A DNA stretch of 64,000 nt from Candidatus Omnitrophota bacterium (GCA_016206685.1 JACQRB010000014.1:9152-73151), one strand, 5' to 3'; positions 19,112 through 62,400 are shown, counted from the stretch's first letter. Program-made: numbers and translations. The notes: generated by a model from the letters alone, not told the origin.

Positions 19112-21919
19112 TGGAGTATAAATCCACGCTCAATCTGCCCAAGACCGGCTTCGCGATGAAAGCGGACTTGCCTGCGCGCGAGCCGCAGATCCTCGCGCGC
19201 TGGGAGGAGCTGGGGTTGTATGAACAGATCCAGCAAACGAGGAAGGGGAGACCAGCGTTTGTCCTGCACGACGGGCCGCCCTATGCCAACGGCGACATCC
19301 ACATCGGCCATGCCCTGAACAAAATCCTCAAGGACCTCATCGTGCGCTACAAGACGATGCGCGGGTTCGCCGCGCCCTACGTGCCGGGCTGGGACTGCCA
19401 CGGCATGCCGATCGAGCATCAGCTCTTCAAGGAGCTGATGCTCACCAAGCCGCAGATCAATCAGGCGAGCTTCCGCGAGAAAGCCCGCGCCTACGCGCAG
19501 AAGTACGTAGACATCCAGCGGGAGCAGTTCAAGCGGCTGGGCGTGTCGGGCGACTGGGGGAAACCGTATCTGACAATGTCCAAAGACTACGAGCTGACCA
19601 TCCTCCGGGTGTTCAAGGAACTGGTCGCCGCCGGCTACATCTAGAGGGAAGAAGCCGGTCTACTGGTGCGCCACCTGCGAGACTGCCCTGGCGGAGGCCG
19701 AGGTCGAGTACGAAGATCGGGCCGACACCTCGATCTATGTCGCGTTTCCCGTGACCAAACCGCCTCGACAACTTCCTGAGACGTTATTGGCGGCTTTTCA
19801 GCATCGGACCCAGACACCCTTGGCCGTGGCGGTGTGGACCACCACTCCCTGGACGCTGCCTGCCAATGTAGCCTTATGCTTTCATCCGACGGCCAAGTAC
19901 GTGGTGCTGCATCAACAAGGGTGGGCGTATAACCTGATCGTTGCCGAAGCCTTGGCGTCGGCATTGGCGGCACGGCTCAAGGCCACCAGTCCTCTGAACA
20001 CGGGATGGGGCACGGGACAGGATTTCGCAGGGATACAATGCGGCAATCCATTGACCGGCCGTCCATCTATGGCCGTGACCGACGAGAGTGTGTCGATGAG
20101 CGAAGGCACCGGCGTTGTGCACATCGCACCGGGGCATGGGCAGGAAGACTATACGGTCGGGCAACGATACAAGTTGGAGGTCTTCTCACCGGTGGATCAT
20201 CAGGGGAAATTTACCCAGGATGTCCCCCCATTCGCCGGCCAGTCGGTATTTGAGGCCAACCCGAAGATAATCGCCGACCTGGCGCAGCGCGGCCTCTTAT
20301 TAAAGGAAGAGCCGATCACCCACTCCTACCCGCATTGCTGGCGGTGCAAGCAGCCGGTGATTTTCCGCGCGACCCCGCAGTGGTTTTTGCGCATCGAGGA
20401 CGCCTTCCGCAGCAAGCTGCTCGAGTGCGCCAGGCAGGTCCGCTGGTTTCCGGACGCGGGCCTGGGCCGCATGTCCGGGATGCTCCAGAGCCGCCCGGAC
20501 TGGTGCCTCTCGCGCCAGCGCTACTGGGGAAGCCCCATCCCGGTGTTTCACTGCACGCGCTGCGAGCAGCCACTCTTGGATCCTCGCCTCATCGAGCAGA
20601 CCATCGAAGCGCTTGCGCAGCGCGGCATTGAGGCGTGGTTCCGCGCCTCGCCAGAGGAGTTGGTTCCGGGAGCGGCGTGTCCATGCGGCAGCCGCGAGCT
20701 GACGAAAGACCCGGACATCCTCGACGTGTGGTTTGATTCCGGCGTGAGCCACGAGGCCGTGCTGAAGGCGCGCCGGGAATTGACCTGGCCGGCCCAGCTC
20801 TACCTCGAGGGCTCCGACCAGCACCGCGGCTGGTTTCAGGTCTCGCTCATCCCATCGGTGGCGCTGCACGCTCGCGCGCCCTACGAGCAGGTGCTCACGC
20901 ATGGCTTCGTCGTTGACGGCGAGGGGCGCAAGATGTCCAAGAGCCTGGGCAACGTCATCGCCCCGCAGGAAGTCATCCAGCGCTATGGGGCGGATATCCT
21001 GCGCTTGTGGGTGGCCTCCTCCGATTACCGCGAGGACGTGCGCCTCTCGGAGGCGATCTTGGAGCAGGTGATCGAAGCCTACCGCAAGATCCGCAACACG
21101 TTTCGTTATCTGTTGGCGAACCTCTACGATTTCCAGCCCGCGCACCGGCAGCCCTATGAGCGGTTGCCTGAGCTGGATCGGTGGGCCCTCCAGCGCGCGC
21201 AGCGCCTCCTCGATGAGGTGACCCAGGCCTACGACGCCTACCAGTTCCATCAGGCCTTCCGCGCCATCTATCAATTTTGCGTCCTGGAGCTGTCGGCCTT
21301 CTACCTGGATGCGCTGAAGGACCGCCTCTACACGGAAGCGGCCCAGTCCGAAAAGAGACGCTGTGCGCAAACGAGCCTCTGTGCTATACTATCCGGCCTT
21401 GTGAGGATGCTCGCGCCCGTGCTGGCCATGACCGTGGAGGAGATCTGGCAGGCCATGCGCGCCTTGCACCTGATTGAAGAGCCGTCGGTGCACTTGGCGC
21501 AGTGGCCGCAGCCGCTGGTGCCGGCGAGCGATGAGCCATTGGAGCAGCGGTGGAACACGGTGCTGGCGGTGCGCGAGGTCGTGATGAAAGCGCTTGAAGA
21601 CAAGCGGATGGCGAACGTGATCGGCAGCTCCTTGGAGGCCCGCGTGACGTTGATAGTGACGGATCCGACGCTGCAGCGCCTGTTGCAGGAGTCTCGCCAG
21701 ACGCTCGCCGAGGCGTTCATCGTGTCAGACCTTGAGGTCGCTGGTAGCGCCGGGCCTGCAGGCGGGACGTCGCTGGCGGGGCTGGCAGGCGTGACCGTCG
21801 AGCGCGCCGCCGGGGCCAAGTGCCAGCGCTGTTGGAAGTACCTGCTCACGGTCGGCGAGGATCCCGCGCATCCGGCGCTCTGCGGCCGGTGCGCAACTGT
21901 GGTGAACGCCCTCGCATGA
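19111..21919 (+). CDS. ileS: Isoleucyl-tRNA synthetase, interrupted by a frameshift near 19640
   Basis: The N-terminal part 19111-19644 ([13 protein letters not shown] = HIGH motif) ends ...AAGYI-TAG. The IleRS continuation [23 protein letters not shown] is in the +1 frame from 19643 and runs to 21919 (KMSKS present, C-terminal Zn-ribbon CQRCW...CGRC). Confidence 0.85.
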
Positions 21920-33156: not shown

Positions 33157-33186
33157 TTGACAAGCGCGCCCGGCGTTCACTATACT
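33157..33186 (+). promoter_or_regulatory. Consensus sigma70-type promoter of the pilin operon
   Basis: TTGACA (33157-62), an 18-nt spacer, then TATACT (33181-86). It lies in a 260-nt intergenic region directly upstream of the riboswitch. Confidence 0.6.
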
Positions 33187-41456: not shown

Positions 41457-44400
41457 ATGCGCATTGACCGCTGGCTCCAACTGAAACGCACGAAGGCGTT
41501 CTGCATCAGCCTGGCGATGCTCTTCGCCGCGGAGCAGTGCGTCTGGGGCGCGGACCTCAACCTGCTCCACACCCTGCAGCTCTCCGGCGAGCAGCAGCGC
41601 CAGCTCGACCAGGCGCTCTCTGCCGCGGTCCTGACCATCTACCAAGACCTCTACAGCCGCGAACCCTCTTCCGAAGAGCTGCGTGAGGCGCTGGAGTTCC
41701 TGCGCCGCTCGCCCCAACTGGCTCACTTGGTGGAACGGCTCAGCCAATCCCCGGAATCCCGCTGGAGACTCCGCCAGCTCAACCCCGAGCGGATCAAGCA
41801 GCGCAAGGCGGAAGCCGCCCAGATTTCGCAAGCCGTCAGCCGCACCGTCGGCGGCTTCCTCCGCGACGTATTGCACTCATCACTCATCACTCATCACTCA
41901 TTACTGGTCATTACACCCACCCTCACCCTCCAACCTGCCCCGATAGTTCTGGCACAACTTGACGAGCCGGCAATTCAGTCCATCGAATCCTGGCTCCGCC
42001 AACCCGATACCCTGTGCGCCAACTGCGCCCCCAACGCCCTCGCTCCCTTACTGGGGATGGTCGGCGTGAACGTCTCCCGTGAGACCCTCACCGCCCAGGC
42101 GTTTCTCCTGGACTACCTCAGTGGGAATGCGGAATTCGGAATACTCCGCACTCCGCACTTCGAAGGTCCGTTGTTCATCAGCATGGATACCGTCCAACGC
42201 CTCGCCCAAGCGTACGGCTTGACGCTGAACGCCGTCGAGCTCACCAGCGACGAGCTCCTCCTGCTGAAGTACCCCATGATTGCCGCCCTGGACCTCACGC
42301 AGGACGGACAAGCCGACCACTACGTCGTCGTGCAGGACGCCAATGAGGCGCGGGTGGTCTACTACGAATCCGACGGCACGCGCGAATCCCTGCCCACGCA
42401 TGAGTTCCTACGGCTCTTCACCGGCTTTGCCCTCGTGGCCTCAGCCGACTCGTATGGGCGACTCTTGAATCAATCCCAAACGAGGACCATCGCTGGCGGA
42501 AGGTCCCGCCGGCAAGAGCTTCCGGACCTCGACAAACTCTTTGAGGAGCCCTCGCTTGGCGACACCTTGATGTCGGTCGGGATGAGCCTTGCCTCGGCGT
42601 ATTTTTCGCCGATGGGCTCCGGTGATTTCCTGTCGAATTTCGGCAGCTCGGCGCTGTACTCCCAAGTCAGCCAAGGCGCCACCCACCTCGCCGTCCGCAC
42701 CTTCGGCTGGAGTCCCGGGGCGGCTCAAATCTTCGGCTATGGCGTCACCGGCGCGTTGAGCGGAGCGACCACTGGCGCCTATCAGTCAAATTACCGGTGG
42801 AACAGCGACTCGTGGCTAGGGAGTACCATGGGGGGGTGGTTTGACATTCAGGCATATCCCATCTCCACAGGGGCAGCCATGGGAGCCCTCAAGGGTGCCG
42901 CGATCGGCGGGGGCTCGCTCCTCGCCTACGAAGCCCTCAAGGACACCAGCTTCTACGAGAGCAATCCCTTTGTGGCACGGCAGATGACGTCGCTGGTGGG
43001 AGGGGCAGGGGGCTACCTCGGCTTTTACGGTCTGACCTCGCTGGCCGGCATTGATCCCGCAATCACCGTTTCGAAAAGTTACGTCGATGCGCAACAGGAC
43101 TTCAAACTCGGGAACGCGACGCTGGCAAACCTCACCCTCATTCCGGAAGCCTTTGAAAAGCAGGGGGGCTATCAGGTGTGGGCCTCGCAGGCATTTGGGG
43201 GCGCTCTTGGCGGGTTGTACCTGGCATTCTCCGATCCTGCCTTCCAGACCAGCCTGGTGTCTCAGGGCATCGGGCTCGCCGCTGAGTACGCCGTACCCAA
43301 CTCCAGATATTCCCGCCTCTTGGGTCAAAGTGCTGGCTCCCTCGGCGCAGCCGCCTTGGGGTATGGAAGCGTCGGGTGGCCTGAGGTCCTCAGGGACGCG
43401 GCGATCTCCGGTCTCTCATCACTCGCCCTACAATCCCTGGGCGGCGGATTCGACCGCAACACGGGCAAGAACAACTGGGGGCTTACGCCCGTCCAGATGG
43501 CGGCGGTCGAGTATGCGGGGACCACCCTCCTGCGCGCGACATGGGACAGCGGCGCGGGATGGTACAGGGGGTCGAATGATGCTCTGTCGTCCACCTTCAC
43601 CGACTCCCTTGGTCGCAACCTCAGAAACCTCTCCCTGGACTATGCGACCTTCGGCAGGACCACCCCGGCTTGGACGCGCGGGGCAGGCGGCTGGGTGGAG
43701 GCGCAGTACATCGAGAAGCTCGCCCAGGTGTCCGGCATCGCCAACTTCAAAGCCAATGCCGACCACGCCATGCAAACCACCGGTCAGTCCTGGAATCAAT
43801 TCGTCAAAAGCGGTCGGCTGGATGACATCCTGCCCTCTCCGGCATTCTCCCTGGTGGACTATACGGCTTCCACCCTCCACTCCGCCGCCGTTGAGAACCT
43901 GGCGTTTCCGATGAGAGACTTTGCCTCACGGATGCTGCCGCAAACGCCGCCTCAGTCAATTCCCTTTAAGGATGGTACGATCGGCAAGCTCCAGGTCGCC
44001 GGAGCCACCTTCGGTCCTCCTGGAGGATCAGACCTCGTGGTGAACAGCTACGCGCTCTACAAAGACGGTCAGGAGCTTGGTCAGTATGTTGGAGTTGACC
44101 CGAAAACAGGCACGATCCGCGTCGCTGGCGACATCGAGGGCGATGCTGTTCAGTACTATGATGACCAGGGCAAGCTGACCGCAGCCATCACCGAGACGGG
44201 CATCCTGACGCCCCAGGTCGCCGGCGCGACCTTTCGTTCGCCAGTAGGGACTGACACCTTCACCGTTGACACCTACGAGCTCCGTGACTTCAGCGGCACC
44301 CCGTTGGGGCAGTTCATCGGCTTCGATGCCCAGGGCAAAGTCCGCGTCGCCGGTGACCTCGAAGGCGCCCAGGTGCGGTACTTCGATCAGGCTGGTCAGC

Positions 44401-47400
44401 TCACTGCGAACATCTCTTATGACACGACTGCGAAGGAGTTCCTGGTTACTCACCTGTTTAGCAAGAACGCGACCTTGGCGCTGGAGGACACCTCAATCAC
44501 AGGCGCCCTCTGGCAGACTACTGACCTTGCGGGCAACGTCATAGGAAGGGCGATCTACAACGACGACCAGCTCGTGGCGACCATCAGCCCTGATAACCGG
44601 GTGGTCACGCCCGAGCTGAAAGGCGTGCAATTCAACATCCCCAATGAAGGGACCGCGACGCTTGACATCCACGCGGTGCATGACCTCGTCAGCGGCAAGC
44701 GCCTCGAGTCTGTGGCGGTTGATCCGAAGACCGGTCAGACCAGAGCCGGTTGGGGACCTCAAGACGCCTCTACCGCGTTCCATTATCCAACGCCGACAGG
44801 AGGCTTGCGCATTGATCGCGTGAACGTTGACCCCGACACCGGAGAGATGGGTCCAGTGGGCATCAAAGCCTACTTCGACGAGCACAAGCGACTGCTTGGC
44901 GTCGTTGACTCAACCACGCCCGAGCACCCTGTCACGCGGATTGCGGCTGCCCAGAATGAGATTACTGAGCCAGCCAGACAGCTTGGATTCGAAGATGGCG
45001 AGGTGTTCGACATCCACGTCGGTGAGGATTCCGTGAAGCCGATCACGCAGGTCGCTTCCCGGGAGGGTCTTGGACAGTATGTCTTTAACTATGCGAGAGA
45101 CACAGCTATCTTTCAGACAGAACCAGGCGCCTCAACCCAAAGCCTCGTGAAGCAGCTCTTGGGTCCTGAGGTGATAGTCCCAGAATCCGCCAGCGCGACC
45201 GTCGTCTTTGACAAAACCGGCACCCCTGTCGTCCTCCTCCCGACGCCGCAGGCTGAGCAGCCCATGCGGGTGTTTGAAGTCAATTGGCAGGAGGAAAGCC
45301 CGCTCGACCTGATGAAGCGATTCATCGAGGAAACCAGTCAACCCTCAAGCACCGGATCGCCACTGAACCTCGAGTCCGCCGACCTGACCCTCCAGCAGAA
45401 GCCGGTGGGCAACGACATCACCGGAACGTCCCAAGCCAAGGCGGCTTTGGTCGAACTCATCCACTACGGCATGGGACCGGAGGGCATGACCGTCTTCACA
45501 GGCAAAGACGGTCAGCAGCGGCTTGCCAGTTTGGAGTCCAAGACTCCAGAAACTCATATCTATCGGTTTGCGGATGATGGCAGCAAGGTGGGCATTAACC
45601 CTACGAGCGGCACAGTGGTCTTCGCCGAAGATGCAACCGGTAAGCGGTTCCTAAACGAATCGGGCAAGCTCACAAGGCTTGAGCTCAATCCAAGACAGGC
45701 AGAAACCCTTGACTTGCAAGGTCGAGGTAACCTTGAACTGAAGGCTGGCGATGCTCCAGCGACCTTCACCGCTGATTCCAAAGGTCAGCTTCGCCTCATC
45801 GAGGGTACTGCTACAGCCACCGGACCCGATGCCTTCACCCAGAACCTCTCTGTAGCCACTGGAGATGCCCTAGTCGGTAAACCCCTATCCCAGCAGACGC
45901 AGGCGTCTACGTCGTTGGTGCGCCAGTTCCAGCAGGAATTCAATGACAAGGGCTATCCGGCGGTGTTTGGTGTGGCACCCCTCGCAGTTGACGGGATAGC
46001 TGGTGAGCAGACCAAGCAAGCAGCCCAGCTTGCGCTAGGGCGTGAACTGTCAGTCATCAACGCGCAAGGTGAGCAAGCGCGGTTGACAGCGGACAAAATG
46101 GTGGAGTACGTCAGGCAGAATCCAGGGAAACTGTCAGCGCTGACCAATCCGTTCATTTCACCGGAAGAAAAGGCTGCGGCGTTGCGTGAAATAGAGGGGA
46201 CGCGTTCGCCCACATTAGATATGCGGGAGCGGCGCCTCCAGGGGCTCGCTACCGCAATTCAGAAGGGTGACTACGAACAAGCCTTGGTCGGTCGTGAACA
46301 GTACAAAGTTGCTGTAGCGCTATCGTACAACTTAAATGCGTTAAAGAGTCTCGATTCTCTGAAGCCGGTACCAGACGACGTTCGACCAATGTTGGAGTCG
46401 GCTGAGCGCAAGTTAGTGATTGGAGATATTGCTGGATCTCAACTTGAATTAGGCAAGGCAAAATTGGCAGCTCAAGTCAATGACACGATCCGCAACTATA
46501 TCCGTGTTCTTGATGCGCCGATTCAGACAGAATTTGACGTTGTACGCAACAATATCTATGCAGGATATGAAGCAGCATCTGACGTTATCAGTAACTCTAT
46601 CAGTACGATCCCTGGTCTTGAGACGTCCCGTGATCGTGATACGCCGCTTGGAGCTCGGGGCGACGCAGCTCCGGACCGGATAGAACCTTACCTCAAGGTC
46701 CTGGAAGGTATTAAGGCAACGCTTGCCGATCCGGATCTGACACCTAACGGGCTTCGGGTGGCTCAGGAGAAGTTTCAGCAAGTTCAGATCTTGGTCCAGC
46801 GTGATCAATCCAGAGATCTGGCTGACGCAAACGCATGGGCTCGTGGATACGCAACCCTGTTCGACCAAGCACTTAATGACGTTCGAGCTGGGACGTTTGA
46901 CTCCACTATGAGTAAATACGGGGGACCGATAAACAAACTCTCCTACAGCGAAGTTAGGGATCTATTTGGCAAAGCGCTTGCTGGTGATCAGGCGGCTCAA
47001 GAAATAGGCAGACTTGGACCCGACCTTACTGCTGTCAATCAAGCACTTCGAGACGCGATGCCCATGGAGCAAAAAGCTTTCATGGCTGCCCACCACGGAA
47101 CTCTGATGGTGGCTGCAAGGTCGGCAGGCGCAGGACTTGCGCTAGGACCTGCTGCTTGGTTCGCGCCTTTGTCCACTGGGATCAGCGCTCTTCTTTTAAC
47201 TAGCACCTTAGGAACTCAGTCTCTTGCTCAAGCATTCGAGACGAGCATTCGAGAACAGTCTGCCTTTGACGAAGCACCCGTTAAACAAGCAATGATAAAA
47301 ATGGCTTTTGATACCGTGAATCTGTGGAACGTTGGGATTGGTTACTTTTCAGACGCCCGGCTCTTTTTCATCCCAAGTCTTCTCTTTAGCTATAAGCCAT

Positions 47401-50400
47401 ATGTCAGTGAGGGGAGTTTTGCTAAGAGCTACGAGGTTCCGCTTGCCATCGCTGCGACTTTTGCAGCAGCAGGCTTCAGCTTTCCGACATACGAAGCGGG
47501 CAAGACGATACCTGGGGTGCTCCGTGAGGCATATCAGCAAGGGAGTCGTACCCCGGTGTGGGGCAGTGAAGTTCTGGGTGGTTTTAGGGAGATATTCGGA
47601 TCGGGTGGGCCGGCAGCAAAGACGTCATGGCGCAGCTTGACGTTGGCTGAGGAAACGGCAGGGCTTAGCAAGAGCGCTCAAATGGTCATGGCGCCATCCC
47701 AAACCGCCACCTTGGCTGCGGGCATCATGAGGGATGCTGCAATATTTAACGCAGGGGTTGGTCTTGTTACTGGTGGACATTCTGCTCTGGACTTGATGTA
47801 TCAAACCATCACCGATCCAAACATGAAAGCCTTCGCTTTAGCAGCACCTTTCCTCACCCCCATCGCCTCTCCTATTCTCCAGAGAGCGCCAATAGCCGGG
47901 AGAATTGCTAATCTGTTTGAGAAGGGCAACGAAACATTTTTTGCCGAAACGTTGGGACGTGGAGTTCTGGCTAGGGCAGAAAGGTATTTCGTTGAAGAAT
48001 TTATAAAAGAACCTTTGATATCCAAGTCGGTACTGATGTCTCAGTATTTACCTGATGGCGCTCGCGAAATAGCTGAAGAGCTATTTGATAGGACTCCAAA
48101 CATCAGCTCTCACATAAGTGGAGCAACCAGCAGAACGTCAGGAGTGCCCTTCCACAACTCGATGGGTGTGCTGGGAGTGCTGCAGGGTGGACAGTTCCAG
48201 GAAATCCCGACTGGCATAACTGAGCCGAAGATTCTCTACGGAGCAAGTGGGGAGCCGGTTCGGATGCTCATGCCGGGTGAGGCGGCTTCGGTGGACGTCA
48301 GTGCCCAACAGACACCGGTGACGCTCGTGAATGAGCTTGGCAGGCCGTTTGGTCAGGAGCTTGCTCAGCCTGTGACGCTGTTCGGTACTGACAATCAACC
48401 GGTAACAGGATCACCCATTGACGTCGCTGCGTCTTCACCAGCGCTGTTCGATGCGTCTGGAAACCAACCCCTTACTGAGCCGGTCAAGGTCTATAGTCCA
48501 GGCCAGTTGTTTGACGCCTCTGGCAAAGAAGTCGTTCCCGCTCCTGTACTAGCTGAAGTAGCTTCAGACATTAGAGCGAAATCATTCCCAACAGTTGACC
48601 AACCATTGACGCCCCCTGCGGTTGTGGACGTCGCACTGTTGCCTAAGACATTTGTGCAGGAACATCGGCTCACTAGCCCGGTTACCGTTGACCGCTGGAC
48701 CTATGACTCCACGAGCAATCTCTACGAGGCGCAAGCGAACCTCCCAGGTGCCAGCGCACCACTGACGTTCCAGTTCAACCCTACGAGTGGTCCGAGGGTT
48801 GACACCATCCAACTTGGTGACACCACGTATGACCACACTGGAATTTCCCGCATCTTCGAGCCTGGTCTGCATCAGTTTGGTGATCGCGTCTACGCCTTTG
48901 AGACACCACTGAAGCTGCCTGTCGCCAACGGCACACCTAACCTGACCACGCTGCCACCTTCGATTGTTGATGTGACCCCGCTGATGGGCTTGCTGCCAGC
49001 GAATCTGCCGACTGAGCTGCGCAACGACCTGGCGCTCAAGCTAACGCGCCATGAGGGCAACGTCGCCGAGATTTTGAACCGACCTGAGCTTGCCCTTCAG
49101 GACCGGACGCTCATCATGACCTATTTTGCAATTCAAGACCTTATTGACCCAGCTCAACTCAAACCGGCAGAGGAATCGAAGCTCGTGCAGGCTGTCCATG
49201 ACCTGGTCGGTCAGGGGATTCCGAAGATTCCTGTCCGCGAGCTGGCGACACGATATGCTCTTCCTATGAGATCTGAGGTGCTTGCCACTGATACCATCCT
49301 CCTCATTCCCCAGTTCAAAACAGCGACCGGCGAACGCTCGCCTCCGCCTGCAGCCGGCGCTCAAGTGATCCCCCTTCATACCGTGCCTTCATTCGGGGCT
49401 GCCCCAAGCGCACCAGAAATGCAGATAGCCGCCAGCGCTGAATCAGTCCCCTTGCCGCAGCTACCTCGTAAGCAAGAACCCCTCATCGAAGAGCCCATTA
49501 CAGAGCCAGGTGTACCTCCTCTGTCAACTCCCATCCCAACACCTAGCCCTCTTTCATGGCAATCTCGCGTCAGGGGTACATTGCGCCACGGCAGCAGCTA
49601 CCTCCAAACCGAACGACCGGTGGAGACGATGCTGGGAAGCGGCTTGGCGCTGTCGGCGCTGAGTGTGTTCCTGACCGGTGGAGCGACGCTGCCGCTGGTG
49701 GCGACGGCTCTCGCGACGGGAGCGGCGGCGTTCTTGAAGCAGGCTCAAACCGAAACGCCTGCCGTCGTGCCGCCCGTGGTGGAGCAGGGCGAAGAGCCTA
49801 TCCGGAAGCCTGCGGAAGTCGTGAACCTCGCTGAGTGGCGAGCGCGCCTGATGCGAGGCGCCAAAACCGTTCCTGCCCAAGCCTGGAAGATCGCGGCTGG
49901 GATTTTTGGAACCCTGACCCTCTCGGACTGGACGAAGTGGTCCGGCAGGGTGGGGCTGTTCGCAGTGGCAATGGTGCTCGGGTTCCCAGGAGTCGTGTTG
50001 GCGCATCAGTTTCTCGCAAAGGCGACGGGACTGTTGGCAGCTCCGGAAGCATGGACGGCGATCAAAGCCTCTGAGAATACGCTCTGGGGTATTGCGCGGG
50101 ATGTACTACGAGCCAACGGGATCGAGCCGACGAACACCCAGATTGCGAATCTGGTCAATGAGATCGCTCAGCACAACGGCATCGCGAGCCCCGACGTCAT
50201 CCGGATCGGCCAACAGATCGACGTTCCAAGCCAATACGCGACGCCGGAGGCCATCGCCCAGCTCACTGGTCAGACTGTTCCGGCTCCTCAGCCACCTGTG
50301 GCAGAAACGCCCGCATCGGCTGTTGAGCAGGCCCCACCGACTGCGGAGCAGGTCGCGCCTCCTGCCCAGGTTCAACCGGCTGCGGGAGAACAGCTCCAAG

Positions 50401-53400
50401 AGACGTCGTCTGCGGCGCTATCCGCCTGGCAACAGGCGCTGGATGGGCTGACCGTGAATGCGGAGTGGCTCAGCAGCGCGTTCCTCATCCTCGCCGGCGT
50501 AGCAATCCTCGGCATCGCATCGCTCCTCATCTTCCGCTGGTGGTCCCGCCGTCGCTCGCAGGTTTCCCAGCCCGTTGCCGAGCCGAAATTTGTCGAGCCA
50601 GACGAGGCGATCCCAGTTGAGCAGCCAACCTCTGGCCGGATCATTATGTTAGATGACCAGGCCGTTGGTGAAGTCAAGCAGCCTGGAGACATCAAGGAGG
50701 TTGAAGGCCGCATCTTGTATGGTCGCCTTGAGCAAGAGCGGGTTCAGCTCATGCAGCGGTATTTGGCTGGTGATCAATCTGTCGAGGCGCGAATCCGCAA
50801 GCTCGAAGCACAGCGCAATGACGCCTTGGATCAACTCAAGGTGGCTGCCGAACAGTATGACGATGACGTGCTCCTGAGTTTGCTTAACCCGGACGGACAG
50901 CAACGGTTTGCAGTGGGCCAGCAGATCTCGCGGGATGAGCGGGGCGGCCGCAACGTGATTGGCGAAATTCTCGAAGCACGCAGAGCCACAGAAGAAGCGG
51001 CCAAGCAGCAGGCGCGCGATGCCATCTTGAGCGACGTGGATCAGGCGATTTCTGCCAGCACGGAAGCGTGGCAACTTGAACAACACAAGCGAACCTTCCT
51101 GGACAATGTCCTTGACCCTGCCAAGCTCGCCAGCCAAGAGTTCACTGATGACGAGGTGGCAGCGCTTCGCCAGGAAGTTGTGCGACGCTTTGAGCAGGCC
51201 GGAGAGCGGCTCATTGTGACGGAGGCCAAAGCAGAGGAAGCCGTCGCGCAGAAGTTGGCCGAACGACAGTTGGCTGAGTCAGCTCTCGAAGAGGTTTTAA
51301 AGACACGAGAGGTTTACTATCGCGCCTTTGATGAGCGAAAGACCCTGGGGCTCCAAAAGGTCGAAGAAGCAGGAGAGCCTTATCGACAAGCGCAGACGGA
51401 AGCTGCTCAGGCATGGCTGCAGAGCCGAAGGGAGGTAGTCCGTCATCTCCTTAGGCTCTGGGTACCTCTATGGAAGACAGGACCTAGGGAAGGAGAAACG
51501 CCTGAAGCGAAAGTTGAGCGTCTCACGAATACGTTGTTAGAACGGTTCGAGCGTATCGTTCAGTCTGGCCGATACAGCAACGAAGACGCTTTGCACTTCT
51601 TAGATCAACTTGTTCGAGCTAGGACTACTTTTGAGCGGGAAGGTTTGGCTGAAGAACGGGCGCTTGTTGAACGGCACATCCAAGACCTGATCGCCATGAT
51701 TGAAGCCGTTTCGGATGGCACTGTCTATTGGGAAGGCAATCTCGTCGGTCAAGACTTCAACAAGCTCTTCAAAGCGGGCCTTCCTGTGGCCATACTAGGG
51801 GATGAGGCCGAAGGACAGCAGCCTCCTTACACGATCACAGTGGTGACTTCGTCAGGGTTCAAGGGCCGTCGAGAATACATTGGTGATCAAGAGGTCAGCG
51901 CTCAGGTAAGCGTACGTGGCACGGCACCTGCCGAGGTCAAAATCGGACCGACCATCGAAGCCAAAGAAGCCGCCAAACCAGCAGAGGTAGAGGAAGCCGC
52001 CGCGCCGACCGACGGCGAAGCCAGCGCGGTGCGGGCCGATGCCGATATTGTGAGAGTTCGAGTTGAGGGCTCAAAGGTTGTCACTGTAGCAGAAGCGTTG
52101 GAAGCTGCCAAAGAGCGTGGAGTTGTCACGGAAGAGGTGATCAACCGGGTGTCTCAGGGAGCATACCGAGTTGAAGTAGAAATCCAGCGGAGGGACGGTT
52201 CCGTTGGAGCGACGATCGATGCCAGACTCATGGGTGGACTCGAATATGGAGTGGCCCCAGGCAGTTCCATTATCCTTACTCCAACAGCGCCCACCGCCAA
52301 GGAGCCACGGCCGGGTGGGCTGGAAGGACAAGCTGGGTTTGCGCTGGTCGAGGTCCTGCCGGGGGTGGCAGGAGGCGTGCTCGTCAGTATCGCGCTCTAC
52401 CCGCTGATCGGCTGGCTCGGAGGACTGGCAGGCTTGGCGGTGCTGGGAGGGCTGTGGTTGGTGGCGTCGCGGATTCGGGCGCCGGCGGAAGAGAAAGCGT
52501 CAGGGCTTGCGGTGGGCGTGCCGCGCCTGTCGGTCTTGGAGCCAGACGACGGCGGCGATGGCCAGCGCGAACAGGACCATGCCTCCGAAGATGATATACA
52601 GGCCCACTTCTCGTTGTTCGATCATCTTCGCTCCTTATTGAGCCACGTGGCAACGCTGTACAGGATCACCAGCATCCCAATGCCACTGATGAAGATCGTT
52701 GGACGAAAGGGAGAAGGAGAAACCACTTGGCCAATTACCACGCTCGCCAGAAAGATGTTCGCTGCGTTGTATAACGCGTTCGCGAGCCCCTTCCGCTGGC
52801 TTTCATCGAGCTTCATCAACTCAAGTATATCGCTCGTCTGGAGCCCTGTCAATGTCACGCTCACCCCCACACTCCTCAGCCTTGGCTTCCTGCTCGCCTG
52901 GGCCCTCGGCTGGATTCCGGATGTCACGCTCGGCGCCGACGGCTGGCACGGCTCGCTGCCGTATTTTAGCTTTGGTGGGCTGGCGAAGATCATCAAAGAA
53001 TCCGGTGAGGGTGGAGACAAGTCGACTACGAAGGAACTGGTGTTCACCACGCAAGAAGTCGCAGCTCTGCTCAGAGTCCACCTTAGCACCGTCTACCACT
53101 TGATCGACAAGGGTCTATTGAAGGCTTCTAGAATCAGCTCTCACATCATCCGTATCCACCGTGATGCACTCGAGGAGACATTTGGCGCAGGAGCACCTGA
53201 GGTGAAGTGGTTGACCGTGGAAGAGGTCGCGAAGCGAGTCAAGCTTCACTATAGAACACTGCTACGTCGGATCCATGCGAAAGGACTAAAGGCGTATCGG
53301 CTCGGGGGCGGCGAGGGAGACTTTCGCATCCGCCAGGATGATCTTAACGCCTTTCTCACCGCCAGGAAGACAAATCCTGCGCTCACGCCGCCCGCCGCCA

Positions 53401-56400
53401 GGAGCGGGCAGACAGGGTCCGAAGTCTTCCCAGGGCCATGGTTCCCGCCGATGCGCTCCGATCCAACGTCGCCGTGGAGGGAGAGGGACCGAGGAGGAGT
53501 GGAGTTTGGGGATCTGGGACCTTTCAACGAACCCCCGGCCTCACCCGGGAAGATTGAGCCCAATGATTCCGCCGATGCCGTGGTCGCGGTCCTTGTGCGA
53601 TGGTCCGAGCAGGGAATCTCGAAGGCCCAGTTCGAGTCGGTCCTGAGCTGGTGGGATCCTGATAAGGAGCGAGAGGAGGAGGCGTTAAGGCCTCAACTTA
53701 GGTCTGGGGATCCGCTGACAGGCTGGCTCCTCGGCGCACTCGAGCAATACCAGCAGGAATACCAGCAGGAGCCGACGAACCCTACCTTGGCCGTCGCCGC
53801 CAAGACGCTCCGGGAATTCCTGTCCCCCCCGCCTGTGGCCGAGCCGCAGCAGGGCGGCAGGGCGCAGACGAAGGAAGAGGAGGCGCTCGTAGAAAAGCAG
53901 AAGCTGGAACAACGGGTCAGGACGACGTTCCATGACCTGGCGATTCCTGTCAACGTGATCATAGGCAGCGTCGAGTTCATCAGGGAGGCGTTGGGCCAGC
54001 ACCCCGAGGCGAAACCACTGGTTCAGCAGCTCACGAAGCTCATGGGTGAGCTCAACGCCAAGCTTAACCACGCGAGGGCTCGCGTCGTGAAGGTCCTTTG
54101 GGAAGAGGCACGCTCCACTCAGGATGCGCGGACACGGCTCATGGAGCTGGTAGATGGGATCAGAACGTCCCTCGAGGATCTGGCGCGCTGGTGGGACCTC
54201 CATCAGGATGACCTTCTCCAATACGTCAGGGACACACCAGGCGAGCCTCGCGTTGCGTGGGCAAGAGACCGGATCTCAAAAGTGCTTCCGCAAGCTCGCG
54301 AATTGCTCGATCAGGTCCTCGAGGAGGAAGCGCCGACCGAGGTGGATCTGGGATCACTCGTGACGCGCGTACAAGCAGACTTCCCGGCGACCGACTCTCT
54401 CACAGTCACCCTTGCTGACTTGCCGCCTGTGCTCCCGCGTGTGCGGGTGAAGGCCTTCGGGCTGCGCCGGGGTCTGTGGAACATCCTGCGCAACGCGGAG
54501 GAGGCGGGGGCGACACGCGTGGGAATCCGCCTTACACTCGTTCCCCTCACGCCCATCCCTGGGGCGCCGCCAGGGATCGCGATCGAGGTGGCCAATGACG
54601 GACCTGCCATTGAAGAGGGGGTGCTTGCGAAGCTGTTCAAGGAGCAGGTGACCGGTAAGGAACACGGCCACGGCATTGGCATGGACGCGCTTGGCAGGCT
54701 TGTGAGGGCATCGGGTGGCACGATCAGGGCGGACAACCGTGAGGGCCACCCGGTCTTCACGATCTGGCTACCGGCCTTTACGCCAACCGTGGGCGGCGGG
54801 GCGCCGAGCGGAAAAACAGTAGAGCTCAAGCGCAGCGGGATGGAGGCAGTGAGGCAGTTGCGCGAGCTCTATACCAGAGCGCTTGAGCTGCTCGACCAGC
54901 CAACACAACTCCCCGCGCTCATGACTGAAGCCAGCCGCGCGGTGGATCAGATTCTAGTCGGCGAAGCGCGCCGGATGGCGAAGGACCTCCTGAATCCCCT
55001 CAGCGGGCTCCAGCTCGCTGTTGAGCTCTCATTGCGGCGACAGAAGGGTTGGCTGCCAGGGGAACGGGAGGGTCTCTCCTCGATGTTGCGCCGGCAACTT
55101 GAGGAGTTGGACGATATCAACCGCGCGTTGGAGGGATGGCCGGACGACCAGCCGTTACCCATCGAAACGCTTCGGGAGGGTTTGCCCGCCATACTCGATT
55201 GGCGCGCGATCCTTGCCGTCGCGCCGGCGAAAGCCGAGCGTTTCTACCAAACGGCAATCAAAACGGTTGAATCGCTCGCATCCCGTCACAACGTCTTTCG
55301 GGAACTGCTTGACTTCACAGAGCGCATCACCCTGGAAGACGCAGTAAAAATTTATGCTGAGACCGTGCGGAGCTATCTAAACGGAGCCTATAAAGATCAA
55401 GACCCAGGCGCCCTGATAGCTGCTTCAGACTGGCGTGATGTCTTTGAGAATAAATTGACGCCATTCTCTTCAGATATGCGGCTCTTTGGGGGTCAAGAAA
55501 CGCAAACGTTCGACAAGAAATCAATAGAGAAAGTCAGAGAGATTGGCCGCGTCGTGATTGCGCTCCATACGTTGAAGAGCAAGATGCAATCCGGAGAGTG
55601 GGATCCCGAAGTCGTCAAGAGGGCGTTCGCGAAAGCCGCCATGGAGGGAGCCTTCTTGCAGCATGTGAAGAACGCGTTAACGGACCGCGACCAGCGTGAC
55701 TGGTCACAGAAGGACTTGGAGGAACTGGCTCGGAGTCTGGGCATTACGGAATTGAAGTTGAATGATCTCATCGACGACCTAGCGGCTCGTCAAGCCATTC
55801 CTGTTGAACCTGGTCTGGTCATCCGTATCGAACGCGAGTCAGGAGGGTTCCAAGTCTCGCTCCCGACGATCAACAAAAGCAGGCCATCCTCGACCCGCAA
55901 GCGCCTGATGGCCTGGGCGGTCACGAGTGTCGTGATGAGCGCTCTCGCGGCGTGGGCGAAGATGTCTGTCGGCGCTGCCGAACCTGGGACGTTCAGCCAG
56001 TTTGTGGGCGACCTCTTGGGGGCTGGGTTCCTCGGCGCGGTCACTGCACTCTTGGCCGCCGTGGTCATGCTGCCGGTGGTGCTGATGGGTCGCCACCCCG
56101 CCCCACGCAGAGGAAGCGGCACGCTCGCCGAGCTTTCCGATTGGCTCGCTGGCGATATCCCAAGCTCCATGGATGCCGGCAAGTGGAAGGAGCGGCTCGA
56201 GACCTTCAGGCAAGAGGCAGGATACGCTCACGTTCCAGAAGCGGACTTCGTGGAGGCGGTTCAAGGAATCATTCACGAGGACAAGCAGTGGATCCGGAAG
56301 CAGGTCGAGTTCCTGAGCCTGTCGGCCAAGGAGGAAGACGCGCGAGGCAGCGCTGCTGAGCGCATTGCTCGCAAAGCCCAGGAGACGGCTCCAGACAATC

Positions 56401-59400
56401 CGGACGCGCCGACCTATCTGATTCTTCTGACCACCGCAGAGCTGATTGCCGCCGTGCTGTCCCGCCCCGAGCCAGGCGGCAAGGGCATCACGCGCCGCCA
56501 GATACTCAGGTCTGCGCTGCTACTAGGAGGGGCAAGGCTACTGGGGCTGCGTTCGCAGGCTCGTGCCGCAGAGCCGCCGCAGAATCCCGCCGACGCGCAA
56601 GCGATTCTGGCTCGCATCGTGACGCCCCAGCGGCGCCGTGCCATCGAGCGAGCGGCGCGTCTGTTGGACGTGGAGCCGGAGCTGATTGAAGCCTTCCTTA
56701 TCGAAGAGGTTCTGTATCGCGAATCAAAGAGTAGATGGGGTCGGTGGTTAGCGGATACGAAAGACCTACTTTCCTCACGGGCGAGCCGGGGGGTGATGCA
56801 AGTTAGGATGGACACGATCCTTGGGACAAAGACAACCAGCCGGCATCTCTTGACATTCTTGAAAGAGCTGCGAGCGTTTGGCGAAGACGGGGAACCGCGC
56901 ACTGACGAAGAGCGGGACGCCCGGGAGGCGCTTCGCGAAGTCATGACGGCGTGGGACACGTATGAGACTGTGGCGAAACCATTAGGGAAGAAGCTGAAAG
57001 ACTATCTCTACGAGTCAGTTGCCAAGCTGCTGCTCTACGACCGGTTCAATATCCTGGCAGGGGCGTTCGTCATGCGTATAAAAGCCGGGCAAGATGGAGC
57101 GGCAAACAAGGACAAGGGTCCCAGGATCCACTCACGCCACTGGAAGGCGGAGACGCTCGAGCGGGTGGCGAAGTTCTATTCGGGCGCAGAAAAATCAAAC
57201 CGCGGCAAGCATAAGCTGGCGTGGTACCGGATCCTGAAGCCGGAAGCTCCGAGCCGTCAACGGGTGCCGCAGAAGCGGAAGGTCAGCGTCCCGGACGCAA
57301 CGGGTAGAGCAGCAGTCGAAAGCGGCCTGATCCTGGCGACGGACTGGAAGGGGCGCAAGGAGGACGAGCTCAAGCAGCTTGATGAGCGGATGGGGCTCAC
57401 GCCGGAACGGCTGAAGAAACTCCGGGTGCTGAATGCCAACCTGAAGCAGGTCATGTGGGAAGTTCTGCAGATGTATAAGCATGCGCCTAACCAGAGATAC
57501 CATGTGGAGAGTTTCGCCTTCTTCGGCAGCATCGTGACAGCTTCGCCGGAGGAGTTCCTACGTCGCTTGGATGATCCGGAGCATGATGAGCACGGTCTGC
57601 CGACGCACGACGTGGACGTCGCCGTCAATGTGACCCCTCGCGACAATGTTCCCGTGCAACGATATCAGCCAATCTGGTACAGGCGGCGCCGCATCAACGT
57701 GGTGACGTCTGGGGTGACGGGAGGGGGTCCATCCGCACTCCTGGACGTGAAGCGGTTGGAAGCTTCCGAGAATTACCTGCTCGAGTTCCTGCGCGAGCGC
57801 GTCGCCAGCCTCTCGCCGGAGGAGCGCCTGGCGCTTTTCGATAGAACGGTGCTCGACAAGGTGGCTGACGAACTCATTGCCCACTGGAAGCGACAAGAAA
57901 AAGACGGGAAGCCGTTACTCGCCCTGCAGATGGGTCTGGCTACGAGCCCTGGTCTCACCGACAGAGAATCCAAAGCGCTCATCGTCTCTTTGCGCAAGCA
58001 GGAGGAAGCCATCGTCCAGATTCTCATGGATATCTATCGGGCTCGGGAGCGCGACAAACTCGGGTGGGAAATGGAGGGACCGTTGACGCAGGTGTTGCAT
58101 GAGCGCGTGCGCCAGGAAATCAGCCGGGAACTCGCAATGAGTTGGCTCGAACGAAGCCCTGACGCGGTCAACGTCGCCTCTCAAGACTATGTCCGGCAGA
58201 TTGATCAAGATGATGCGCTCCGTCCGATGCTGACCACGGTGATTTCGCGGTCTGAGAATGTCAAAGACCGATTGGAAGCGCTCGCGCTCATCATGAATAC
58301 GATGCAGGACAGACAATCGCGGGGAGTCGATGTGTTTGAGCCGCTTTGGGACAACATGATGAAGGAACTCCTGTCGCAAGGCGTCGCTCAGTTGAATCCG
58401 CAAGACATCGCGATGGCAGAGCTCATCCGGCTCGAAATCTTTGCAAGCCTCTTGGCTCGCGCCAGAACCCTCAATAGTTCGGAGGCCACGACCGTTCAGG
58501 CAACATTCGGGGTGGCCTTTGCCGCGGCGTTTGCCCCGAAGCTCCTCAGTGTCCTGGGATTGAGTGCGCCCATCATCCCCATGATGGCGTGGCCCGTGGC
58601 GTTCCTGGCGCTAGGATATGGCATCTGGTTCAAGCGGGCCCTCTTTGGTCAGATTCACCAGGCAGTCAGGGGCTGGTTGGGTAGACCGCCGGTCGTTTCG
58701 GGCAAGCTGGATGTTGACGCATTGGCCAGGGAGGTCACTGACTCTCTGGATCTGATCGAGCGAGGGACCATCGAGTTGTTTAGTCTCAAGGAGATGGATG
58801 AGGAAGGAGCACGGGCAGCCGCCGCAGCCTACGGCTTGGCTCTCGAGGCACTGCGCAACAGCATCATCGGGGCATTGAAGCGGGACAGACGGCCTTATGA
58901 CGACAAGATCGTTGATGCGATCCAAGAGCGCGCTGTGCAACTCCTGCGGCCTGGATCTGTTGTCTCGCAGGAGACCGGAGAGCGCTTGCCAAGTTCAGCC
59001 AACGGATGGCGGACGCTCCATTCCTGGCTCGTGCCGCTGGTGGGGGCTGGGCTCCTTTCCCTCTACGGCTTCGGCGGGGACTTCTCGTGGGGCTTGGTGG
59101 GGCTGACGCTGGCGATGCTTGGCGGGCTGGCGGCGGTGAGCTACTTGGCTTCGACGGCTTCGAGCCGGCTTGCGAACTTCTTCAGGTCGTCCCGCAGCAG
59201 TTTGACTTGGAGCTCAAGGGCTTCAAGCTTCTTCTCGATGTCAAAGCTGCACGTCTTGAGGACAGACGTGTCATTTTTCAGCCGGTCGATCTCATCGGTG
59301 TTTTTGCGGCCAATCAGCTTGAGCAGATCAATATCTTCGACCATCTGGTTGACCTTCGGTTCCATTCGCTCCACAGACTTGCGAACCCCTGAGAGTCCTT

Positions 59401-62400
59401 CACCAAATGTCCGAAACTCTCCACGTAACTCTTCCAGCAGGGCGTTGGTCCGCCCGGATTCAGCGCTTGAAGACGGCTTGCGTGCAGGGGACATTACTTC
59501 TTCTCCTTCTAGTTCTAGGCCTTTAGACATACACCACCAGCAATCACGTGTCAATCCGAAATTCTTGGGCCTGCTCCTGCGACAGATTGCGGCTGGGCTG
59601 CGCAGCCTCTGGGCCGGCAAGGTGAGCCCGGCTCACGCACCGCCACAGCCACAGGTTCGCTCCTGGATCAGCCGCATCAGACCGCTCATCATCTCCTTCT
59701 TTGTCATTGCCACGACGCTCTTCCTGCCGACCCTTGGCTGGGCTGGCACCTACGTTGTCCGGCAAGGCGACAGCCTCTGGCGCATCGCCAAAGCACAGCT
59801 TGGCGATCCCCTGCGCTGGACTGAAATTCATCAAGCCAATCCGGCGATTATCAATCCGGACCTCATCTTTCCAGACCAACCGATTACCATTCCTGAACCG
59901 TCCGGGACCTCAGACGCCATCACCCAGCTGGCTGGTCAGCCAGCCGGTGGAGAACAAGCGCCGTTTGGACCGCAGAGCGTGCCTGACACAGGAGGTCTGG
60001 CCGACCTGATCACGCAAGCCATCCAGGCTCATCCGGATGTGTTGCTGGCCATCGGCGCCGTCGGACTTGCATGGCTCGGCTATGTCGCCTACCGCTGGTG
60101 GACCCGCCGCCCATCGAACCCCTCTCTCTCGCGTGATCTGCAAATTCGCTGGCTCTGGATGACGTTTGGATTCCGGCAATTCCTGAAAGAGCTGCGACCG
60201 CGATTCAACACAGCCTTCGTGGCATTACTGCTCTACGTGCTGACCAGTTTCAACGGGGTGTTAGTGGCTGCCTTCGCAGGCGCATTGTCTTCGACTAAAC
60301 CCGCAGCTCAAACAGGTCAACTGCAACGCTCGCCGCTACCAGACTTCACGTCTTCTCCGTTATTTATCGCTCCCACCCTCGAGGAGATCAAGTACTACGG
60401 CGATCTGCGCAAAGCCATAGGCAAGGTGGAAGAATCCAAGCGCTGGGTCGCCCTCATGGAACGGCTGTGGACGAAGACGGACGGCACGCGCTTCATGTTG
60501 ACTTCATTGAAGGAAGGAGAACTCTACACACCGGTTCCGGTCGAAGGTGCGGATGGTCCGGACAAACAGTTCGTGACCACGAAGCGGTTCATGGACTTCG
60601 TGCGGGATGAGAAGACGGCGTCCCGAGTCTATGCCGCCCCCTCTATCCCGGGACCGCTCGACCTCGCGAAGATCAAGGAAGACTGGCGCCAGATCACCAA
60701 CCCGCGCGAGCTGGAGCGGGCTCACGAGAAGCGAGAGCGGCTGTACGTGGTCTTCACCTGGCGGGAAGCCGACGGCACGCTGAAGGAAGGCCTGCTGGAA
60801 GCCGGCAAGCTCGCCGCCGAGGACACCGAGCGGCTCTCCAAGGCGTTTCTCAACGGGTTGTTTCTGTCGAGCCAATTGCTTGACGTGCTTGCCATCAGCA
60901 ATCCCCAGGCGCAAGCCAAGGAAATCAAGGCACGGTTTGGCATAGATATAGATGTTGAGGTAGGGAAGCAACCCTATGCCGCGGTGGACGTCAAGCGGGA
61001 TGAGCTGGGCAACATCACTCAGGTGGTTGGATTCTATCGGGACGATGACATTGAGGTGGAGCCGAATTGGGAGACTAAGCGGGCTGAGCTCATCCTCAAG
61101 GAGAAGGACGGGAATAAGAGCCCGCTCAAATTCTGGCCACTTAACAAGGACGAGATGGGGCTGACGTTCGCCAGGAAAACGCCGAATGAGATCGAGCGCG
61201 AGATAGGCGTGAGAGCAGGCAAAGAGTACGAAGGGGAGCGGTATGACCTCGAGAAGGACGGTGAGCCATTGGCGCGAGGCGAGATCATCCTCGGTCAAAA
61301 CTTCCTTGAGTCGCGGCTGGTGGATAACAAGATGGCGCAACTCCTCCTGCACGTGCAAATGGAGTCGTTGCTGCACTCCGTGGACTTTTTGGAGAAGCGA
61401 AGGGTCCTGGACCTGATCCTGGTGCCCATCAATATCGGTTTGGCTGTGGCGGGGAAGGGCGTGCCGATTCCCATTAGCAACATCGCCCGGATGGCTTTTG
61501 AAGCCCTGTATCATGACAAGCTGAAAGCTGCGACCCCCACGCCGGAGCAACAGGTGGAGTTCTTTGCACAATTCTTGATGGTTCGGCAGAAAGCACAGCG
61601 GGCTGGTCAGCGATTGAGCGACGACGAATTCGCACGCGAGAGTGAAACCGCCAAGGAGCAGTGGGCTGCGCTCAAGCCCGAGGAGCAATCCCGTCTGCGC
61701 GACGACGCCAAGACGTATCTGGTGGAGCGCTTCAGCGACTTCGATGACGAGCGGTTCTTCCATTTTGTCAGAGCCCAACGGACCGAGCAGACCGCGCGCT
61801 TCCTTCTGAACGCCTTCACGCTGTTTGCGGATATCGCCGGGGCAGTCCTTGAGCAGGACACCGTCAAAGTGCGGGGGGGATTCAAAGGGACCCAGCAGAT
61901 TGTGTTTGACCAGCCCAGGTTTAAGCTGGCGGTGGATATCCTCCGCGCGAAATACCTCTCCCTCACCGAGGTCAACCTTGGTCAGCTCATCTCCCTGGCG
62001 GCGACCGGTCGCCAACTGAACCTGATGAGCGTCCGCGAATTCGGTCGCGGGTCATTCCTGAATACGTTCTTCAGCGCGGTGAGCTTGAGGCCTGACACCC
62101 TGAGCGTGGTCAATGCGCTCCACAAGGCGTTCGCCCCGCCTGAGACGGCTTGGCAGAAAGTGTTTGAGACGTCGCCAAGCACCCCGCGCTTCATTGTGGA
62201 GCTCTTCGGCTTTCCCATCCAGACTTTCTCGGAGCTCGCCCTGAAGAAGGACGTGTTGCGGGCGATGTCCGAGTCGCATGCGTACGAAGTGACCGACGGG
62301 TGGTTCTCGTCCTCAGTCACCCCATACACGCAAGAGCGGTTCGAGCATCTTGACAAGATCCCCATTGGTAAAGTGATTCAGCTCGAATCGGGACAGCAGG

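Follow-up and report, generated by a model that had tools for sequence, protein, structure and literature searches.

The present analysis concerns a signalling-type module embedded in a giant open reading frame (ORF) of a Candidatus Omnitrophota bacterium (GCA_016206685.1, JACQRB010000014.1:9152-73151). The window, meaning the whole 64,000-nucleotide stretch of DNA that was analysed, holds this ORF on its plus strand, and the module, at 53040-54775, comprises a tandem pair of excisionase-type helix-turn-helix (HTH) domains followed by a histidine kinase-like core. The frame holding 53040 is free of stop codons from 41454 to the end of the window, which corresponds to at least 7,515 codons; this length is a lower bound, given that the window end truncates the ORF at 7,515 amino acids (aa). 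A first-pass annotation of the same DNA had placed the module inside a giant membrane ORF with periplasmic murein-binding domains, and both the open frame and the domain content described below bear this out.

The giant open reading frame and its locus

GC content at the three codon positions (GC1/GC2/GC3) and a codon-usage model trained on housekeeping genes from the same window identify the giant frame as the coding frame nearly throughout, 53040-54775 included. Pfam placed a Peptidase_C39 domain (PF03412) at aa 243-330 (E 9e-9), with a Cys-bearing motif, NCAPNAL, and a His motif, HYVVV, that were both spotted by eye, and it returned LysM matches at aa ~2874-2925 and ~6100-6147. Beyond C39, LysM and the domains of the module, nothing significant was found by Pfam in the remaining segments of the giant ORF. 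In hydropathy scans the N-terminus showed a hydrophobic segment, and at least 12 good transmembrane (TM) candidates were found in addition to it.

The giant ORF begins 16 nucleotides (nt) past the second of two T2SSF genes, which belong to a 5' cluster that also includes a T2SSE ATPase, a Rotamase_2 isomerase, RcpC, a secretin and a TadG-like gene. Farther upstream lie housekeeping genes, namely those for isoleucyl-tRNA synthetase (IleRS) and lipoprotein processing, and the dcw cluster. Over its C-terminal part, IleRS shares 62-67% identity with three metagenome-assembled genomes (MAGs) and at most 50% with all else; two of the three are labelled Candidatus Omnitrophota, one of them a 67%-GC groundwater bin, and the third is labelled Planctomycetales. 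Homologs of the N-terminal 800 aa of the giant ORF occur in Omnitrophota-type MAGs (P0153 is from an Omnitrophica MAG), where they are located directly after two T2SSF genes, and the relatives L081 and L082 likewise show synteny of the secretion cluster. The IleRS gene itself is divided between two ORFs (19000-19644 and 19751-21919) that do not share a frame, which suggests either an assembly indel error (e.g., from long reads) or a frameshifted gene.

Giant proteins of Omnitrophota have been described as carrying an N-terminal C39 domain near a signal peptide and numerous TM helices, and their loci are preceded by a secretion cluster of gspD/E/F, rcpC and a Rotamase_2 isomerase (West-Roberts et al., 2023; 10.1101/2023.11.21.568195). 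More recently, a C39 architecture cluster of 24 proteins was reported, together with Tad cassettes that adjoin giant genes (2026 preprint; 10.64898/2026.06.07.730766). The present locus is of this published Omnitrophota giant-gene type.

Two further parts of the giant ORF stand out. A block of ~4 kb (45654-49500) is atypical in composition, with GC3 falling from ~0.75 to 0.46-0.56; six of six frames are negative there in the codon model, and the block has no Pfam match. The block may have been acquired recently or may evolve fast. Downstream of the module, 56454-56573 (aa 5001-5040) encodes an internal twin-arginine (Tat)-type signal, in which an in-frame GTG is followed by ...GITRRQILRSALLLGGARLLGLRSQARA/AEPP. 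The 7,515 aa contain two matches to the Tat motif, and only this one has an h-region and an AxA site; it could be the remnant of a former N-terminus or serve in dual Sec/Tat targeting. Pfam places no significant domain behind it. An SLT domain read by eye after the Tat-like signal was discarded, given that Pfam offered it no support beyond a sub-threshold muramidase hint (E 0.18).

The HTH_17 pair and the kinase core

Both HTH domains are strongly matched by family profiles. The HTH_17 profile (PF12728) covers two stretches with an E-value of 6e-23 (81.3 bits against a cut-off of 27), and the NCBIfam 'excise' / excisionase family, TIGR01764, covers the pair with an E-value of 1.6e-22 (79.6 bits against 28.8). 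The first copy begins exactly at 53040, in agreement with the first-pass annotation, which had read two HTH_17 domains at the start of the module. Furthermore, a profile built from both copies and from tandem-HTH proteins recovered exactly two copies in the giant ORF, at the same positions. A single-sequence model over the HTH part was of low confidence (predicted local distance difference test, pLDDT, 37-64). With PADLOC, only the HTH was recognised (mad1-like) and no defence-system ATPase was matched.

The CA domain gives a HATPase_c (PF02518-type) match at aa 4336-4440 of 38.8 bits against a cut-off of 26.4, which bears out this earlier assignment as well. Many kinase equivalogs of NCBIfam fall over the same domain, all of them sub-threshold, and a sequence search of the PDB returned ZraS, FixL chimeras, NtrB and CckA at 1e-6 to 1e-4. 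In a 41-sequence alignment the N box (N4343/N4347), the F box (F4395) and the G2 box (G4405/G4407/G4409) are invariant. On the N-terminal side, the H-box 'TTFHDLAIPVNVIIGSVEF' keeps the HisKA signature H-D-L-x-x-P-V-x-x-I-x-G-x-x-E-F around His4160. A custom DHp profile, built from 106 related kinases, scored 13.9 bits with His4160 on the phospho-His column and helix alpha-2 at aa 4262-4295, adjoining the CA domain. The H-box that had been called recognisable in the first pass is thus upheld by its signature and by this custom profile, and the N and G2 boxes of the same reading are conserved; its G1 box, the HisKA score and the position of the His depart from the canonical pattern and are taken up below. 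On sequence alone the CA assignment holds, and the kinase core is read as real but non-canonical.

Two further elements follow the CA domain. A second DHp-like segment (aa 4501-4566) scored 16.6 bits with the custom profile and 17.8 bits with the Pfam HisKA profile, and beyond it lies a domain shared with the stand-alone proteins P0001 and P0017, whose genomic surroundings were uninformative. P0001 carries five DGG motifs bracketing its domains, and P0017 has an HD-type motif.

AlphaFold2 run without an alignment gave a model that was too poor to read except for its helices (pLDDT 49.5), whereas a pLDDT of 83 was obtained with an alignment. The alignment-based model has a kinked N-terminal helix bearing His4160 (lower confidence), a 77-residue helix and a return helix, and its ATPase domain is a well-defined alpha/beta structure. 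Every top Foldseek match of this model in the PDB was a DHp-CA kinase (YF1/FixL, ZraS, CckA, CpxA and HK853; E ~1e-12 over 220-270 columns), with the DHp part of the match partly built in by the kinase alignment used as model input. As modelled, the core of the module has the DHp-CA fold.

Searches for the module as a whole were made at several depths. With the whole loop that contains it, a word-indexed homology search gave nothing at E <= 1e-5 and a scan of GTDB genomes found nothing. HMMER against 1.8 billion representatives returned generic CA matches (best E 1.5e-12) and small tandem-HTH proteins, and the combination of HTH_17 with a kinase core was present in 0 of the 150 best matches. 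HTH_17 is not mentioned in the text of West-Roberts et al. (2023) or of the 2026 preprint, nor in one supplement. In the databases searched there is no counterpart to the combination of a tandem HTH_17 pair, a kinase core whose His is displaced and a second DHp that lacks the His, and this combination appears not to have been described before.

Table 1. Features of the giant ORF, the module and its surroundings, in window coordinates.
Feature	Position	Residues (aa)	Strand	Remarks
Giant ORF	41457..63998		+	At least 7,514 codons from first ATG 41457; exceeds window end
Antisense island 1	52500..52852		-	Sigma70-like promoter and two small ORFs
Hydrophobic segment, candidate TM	52860..52916	3803-3821	+	Directly upstream of module; Hessa-type sum 1.64
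HTH_17 copy 1	53040..53186	3863-3911	+	Begins at in-frame GTG with preceding GAAGGA
HTH_17 copy 2	53208..53360	3919-3969	+	Begins beside TTG 53211, GAGGTG 6 nt upstream
Pro/Gly-rich linker	53361..53870	~170 aa long	+	No domain match; low-confidence model
HisKA-like helix alpha-1, H-box FHDLAIPVNVIIGSVEF	53910..54056		+	His4160 codon 53931-53933
Extra helical segment	54057..54236	~60-75 aa long	+	Between H-box helix and CA-proximal helix; Thr4238 codon 54165-54167
DHp helix alpha-2	54237..54338	4262-4295	+	Leads into ATPase domain
HATPase_c / CA domain	54459..54773	4336-4440	+	N, F and G2 boxes intact; G1 = N-D-G-P-A
Second DHp-like segment	54954..55151	4501-4566	+	After CA domain; Lys4510 replaces His
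Shared domain, function unassigned	55203..55649	~4584-4732	+	35-41% identity to stand-alone proteins P0001, P0017
Hydrophobic pair	55902..56072	4817-4835 and 4855-4873	+	Closes loop; STRKR before, RHPAPRR after

Placement, translation and processing of the module

Each LysM match lies in a loop of its own. The first is bracketed by hydrophobic segments at aa 2833-2855 and 3005-3027, with RWWSRRRS after the second segment, and the second by segments at aa 6077-6102 and 6196-6213, with RWWTRRPS in the equivalent place; judged by their charges, these flanks look as expected for periplasmic loops. At the C-terminal boundary of the module loop, the residues around the hydrophobic pair read as a cytoplasmic charge signature. 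The predicted topology of the N-terminal boundary is ambiguous: the status of the candidate TM at aa 3803-3821 decides the topology of the loop, membrane passes within aa 3630-3672 are uncertain (3.95 and 0.50), and published work on giant Omnitrophota proteins warns that TM predictions for them are unreliable.

A polytopic topology explains how LysM and a kinase can occur in one protein. The first-pass annotation had considered this combination topologically puzzling without processing of the product or an internal start, a condition that proved mostly unnecessary, because the ORF is polytopic and the LysM domains sit in their own TM-bracketed loops. Moreover, cytoplasm-type domains, HATPase_c included, have already been documented in giant multi-TM Omnitrophota proteins. 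HATPase_c ranks among the top 20 domains of giant proteins (West-Roberts et al., 2023), and PF02518 was found in 136 of 916 long Omnitrophota proteins, in which the 'signal-transduction / regulatory' module was read as cytoplasm-facing (2026 preprint).

It is proposed, with moderate confidence, that the module is a built-in regulatory loop of one polytopic inner-membrane polypeptide and is translated as part of the giant protein. The loop (aa ~3823-4816, ~1,000 residues) would most likely face the cytoplasm and the LysM loops the periplasm. In order, the module has a tandem of excisionase-type, putatively winged HTH domains, then a flexible linker, and a helical DHp-like stalk that leads to an ATP-binding domain of the Bergerat fold. 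The CA domain would bind ATP and either phosphorylate His4160 on an extra N-terminal hairpin, in a CheA-P1-like or extended-DHp geometry, or serve as a switch of the ATPase or pseudokinase kind. The loop may receive conformational changes from the envelope-spanning parts, and the membrane-tethered tandem HTH may bind DNA, probably at adjacent direct repeats like Xis and BldC-type proteins. In this way the state of an envelope or prey-contact machine could be coupled to gene expression or chromosome tethering, by the coupling logic of membrane-anchored one-component regulators. Such an architecture makes sense without an internal start or cleavage.

Several observations weigh against this proposal. 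HisKA (PF00512) scored 12.5 bits (E 0.16), below its cut-off of 26.9, and 187 aa separate H4160 from the second N-box Asn, N4347, against a median of 113 in 94 relatives (5-95%: 107-123). In the 41-sequence alignment, Thr4238 occupies the column that holds His in 38/38 relatives; it lies 109 aa from N4347, near the canonical spacing. In place of the D-x-G-x-G of its relatives, the module has N-D-G-P-A as its G1 box, the Asn being common to 3 of 40 relatives that are otherwise normal. Neither the visible ORF nor the tested neighbours within the window yielded a Response_reg domain. The fold match, as stated, is partly built in on the DHp side, and the HMMER search of the 1.8 billion representatives gave no architecture ortholog. 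As for topology, the candidate TM at aa 3803-3821 has K/R before it and D/D after it, which corresponds to N-in/C-out by the positive-inside rule, and the number of TM segments from the first LysM to the module is even if all candidates are real. A local topology inconsistency thus persists exactly at the upstream edge of the module. In addition, P0001 and P0017 have charged or hydrophobic N-termini that are signal-, anchor- or pilin-like. A candidate that was set aside is GIRTSLEDL, the Thr4238 site, which the MAFFT placement made a decayed H-box: the consensus residues around it are all lost, and the H-box half of the DHp profile does not align to this site. The site still marks the canonical His spacing.

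The sub-threshold HisKA score, the displaced His, the Thr at the canonical site and the Asn of the G1 box make kinase activity uncertain. A degenerate kinase is the alternative that survives best, and it is held as a tentative but appreciable possibility. No phosphotransfer would take place in such a protein; the CA domain would be ATP-binding or structural, and the HTH pair would serve as a protein or nucleic-acid tether. In addition to the four features just named, the shift of the sole His-bearing H-box amounting to ~75 residues, this alternative is favoured by the Lys that stands for His in the second DHp-like segment and by the lack of a receiver domain within the window. However, the His4160 H-box keeps the HisKA signature and its 13.9 bits, the N, F and G2 boxes are invariant, and the G1 Asn recurs in 3/40 otherwise normal relatives. 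Receiver domains are common in other giant Omnitrophota proteins (2026 preprint) and could lie past the window.

Processing of a polyprotein is unlikely. By this account the giant precursor would be cut by its own C39 or by another protease, and the HTH-kinase unit would be freed. The C39 domain is present with plausible Cys and His motifs, and C39 has been proposed as a possible cutter of giant proteins (West-Roberts et al., 2023). Furthermore, double-glycine sites flank the loop at aa 3855-3856 (GEGG/DKS, 8 aa before HTH copy 1) and at aa 4797-4798 (ESGG/FQV, before the TM at aa 4817), and the related domain in P0001 is bracketed by DGG motifs. Relative to shuffled sequences, however, the giant ORF shows no enrichment of GG, [DE]GG and SGG motifs (z <= 1.5), which leaves C39 self-processing without statistical support here, and the flanking sites do not have the hydrophobic residues that are typical of double-glycine leaders. 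Placed after a signal peptide, a peptidase would act in the periplasm, out of reach of any cytoplasmic site, and cleavage in members of the class is itself a proposal only.

Genes nested in the linkers of the giant ORF were also considered. On the minus strand just upstream of the module, antisense island 1 has a promoter-like TTGACA-17-TATACT (52852->52824) that matches the consensus at 11/12 positions; the whole window contains two matches of at least 10/12, counting both strands, and 0.1 would be expected by chance at 11/12 or better. The -10 element ends 8 nt before ATG 52816, making the first ORF near-leaderless. ORF 1 (64 aa, hydrophobic, ATG 52816 -> 52622) and ORF 2 (41 aa, single TM, ATG 52625 -> 52500, preceded by an AAGGAG Shine-Dalgarno (SD) motif) are joined by an ATGA overlap of the TGA of the former with the ATG of the latter. 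Over ORF 1 the codon model gives -2.7 bits for the giant frame against +3.5 for the minus frame, and over ORF 2 both strands score well. No homologs or Pfam matches of either ORF were found. Island 1 looks like a genuine nested antisense operon; if its genes are real, the plus frame would be open over them by chance with p ~0.2. The idea that the antisense islands are invertible segments was abandoned, since only short, imperfect inverted repeats are present.

The other near-consensus promoter match in the window (TTGACA-18-TATACT, 11/12) is at 33157 on the plus strand, in a gap of the Tad cluster at ~32.9-33.9 kb. A second island, at 59094-59450 (minus ORF 59141-59620), has codon-model scores of +32/+23 bits in the minus frame against -7/-28 in the giant frame, with which it shares wobble positions. 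The minus ORF encodes 159 aa that are coiled-coil-like, the giant frame there is Ser/Arg-rich and of low complexity, and the chance of the plus frame being open is ~0.07.

The continuity of the frame could be compared between genomes only at the N-terminus of the ORF, no ortholog of the module having been found. At aa 230/236, between the Cys and His halves of C39, the window and P0151 are continuous. At the same point L081 (10001-11700) has a variable spacer and a frame change, and L082 (8095-10995) has a ~450-nt insertion across which the main frame stays open; the insertion holds a complete bAvd/23S_rRNA_IVP-like gene in another frame. Comparison of L081 and L082 thus indicates that the linkers of these ORFs are variable and that nested genes can be accommodated in them without closing the long frame.

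These observations can be combined into a reading in which the giant ORF is a stop-less 'gene train', with modules that carry N-terminus-like signals and are made separately by internal initiation and/or C39 cleavage, and with linkers that also receive nested genes, which have to leave the main frame open. The HTH-kinase unit would then be a free cytoplasmic regulator. The signals that can be cited from the sequence are the HTH_17 at a GTG with an SD, the Tat-type segment at aa 5001-5040 with its GTG and the signal-peptide-like segments before each LysM; the nested genes would be the antisense mini-operon at 52500-52852 and the bAvd-like gene in L082. This reading is judged quite unlikely.

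Internal initiation at GTG 53040, as proposed in the first-pass annotation, is doubtful to the point of being improbable. It would yield a free cytoplasmic HTH_17-HTH_17-kinase that runs beyond the window unless cleaved. The start-like motif exists, GAAGGA preceding the GTG with a spacing of 4 nt, and the first position of the HTH_17 profile falls on this codon. HTH_17 domains are usually found at the N-terminus, a continuous chain would be at odds with the topology at the N-terminal end of the loop, and the coding signal of the giant frame falls just upstream, in island 1. However, an equal or better SD-like motif precedes 29 of 439 in-frame ATG/GTG/TTG codons, and other frames behave alike (24/421 and 6/72), so the signal at 53040 is no better than chance. 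Genuine gene starts in the window mostly lack a strong SD, and such coincidences do arise, as HTH copy 2 also begins beside a TTG with a better motif, GAGGTG. No promoter-like site was found on the plus strand near 53040. Local mRNA structure is unremarkable there, a measure that is uninformative since true starts show no lower degree of structure than the background.

The coding signal bears on the same question. Over the 70 codons that precede 53040 the codon model favours the giant frame, with +17.6 bits against -6 or lower in every other frame, and coding therefore passes through 53040 and does not begin there. With no stop ahead of the module, any ribosome that comes from upstream necessarily reads on into it. 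A product begun at 53040 would in any case extend for at least 3,650 further codons without a stop and would still be a giant membrane protein. The proposed start has thus found no support, although the motif that suggested it is present.

Finally, it is highly improbable that the loop is extracytoplasmic or is delivered to prey by a Tad/T2SS-like machine and acts there: the positive-inside pattern of the TM at aa 3803-3821, the positively charged, signal/anchor-like N-termini of the stand-alone homologs of the adjacent domain (one with an HD-type motif), published topology predictions that put many cytoplasm-type domains outside (which their own authors doubt) and the predation attributed to giant-gene Omnitrophota point that way, but the periplasm contains neither ATP nor DNA, the C-terminal boundary of the loop looks cytoplasmic and no secretion signal is specific to the segment.

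Relation to known systems

The giant proteins of Omnitrophota rank with the longest polypeptides predicted to date, and the module offers an example of a regulatory cassette, with DNA-binding domains and a kinase-type ATPase, wired into such a protein. Its oddities are testable, namely the displaced phospho-acceptor His, the ambiguous loop topology and, in the adjacent linker, the antisense mini-operon with its own promoter. Should the module autophosphorylate or bind DNA, it would give a first handle on signalling from a giant envelope machine to the cell, and if it is released, polyprotein-style expression in bacteria would be established. Currently it is mainly one more documented domain combination within a known class.

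The closest likeness of the core is to class I histidine kinases such as ZraS, FixL/YF1, CckA, CpxA and HK853, which gave the best sequence and structure matches and, like the module, have a DHp-like stalk ahead of a Bergerat-fold CA domain; an H-box-like motif and the N, F and G2 boxes are also common to both. In those kinases the canonical His lies ~113 aa from the N box, whereas here the distance is 187 aa, Thr takes the place of the canonical His, G1 opens with Asn and an extra helical segment of ~75 aa is present. Class I kinases also carry sensor, HAMP or PAS domains N-terminal to the core; here that place is taken by DNA-binding domains, and no cognate regulator is in view.

The HTH pair has its strong profile match in common with excisionase/MerR-type HTH_17 proteins (Xis, AlpA and BldC). 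Tandem-repeat proteins such as P0019 and P0140 are small and stand-alone, with three HTH_17 copies each, unlike the two copies found here inside a membrane protein of >7,500 aa and fused to a kinase core. ToxR, CadC and TcpP are membrane-anchored one-component regulators that are small and single-pass, with an OmpR-type winged helix and no ATPase. Their DNA-binding fold differs from HTH_17, and the comparison with them is one of functional analogy only, not of membership.

With the giant proteins of Omnitrophota, the present ORF shares the N-terminal C39 near a signal peptide, many TM segments, mostly orphan sequence, an upstream cluster of the gspE/Rotamase_2/RcpC/secretin/gspF type, an Omnitrophota host and an embedded HATPase_c domain. 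The published giant classes measure at least 10-30 thousand aa, whereas 7,515 aa are visible here of an ORF that is cut by the window end, and its visible part has none of the SecA_DEAD, glycosyl-transferase or dockerin domains of the published giants. The fusion of a tandem HTH_17 pair to a kinase core goes unmentioned in the text of both giant-protein papers. The module is thus an unusual member of a described class, and not a new kind of system.

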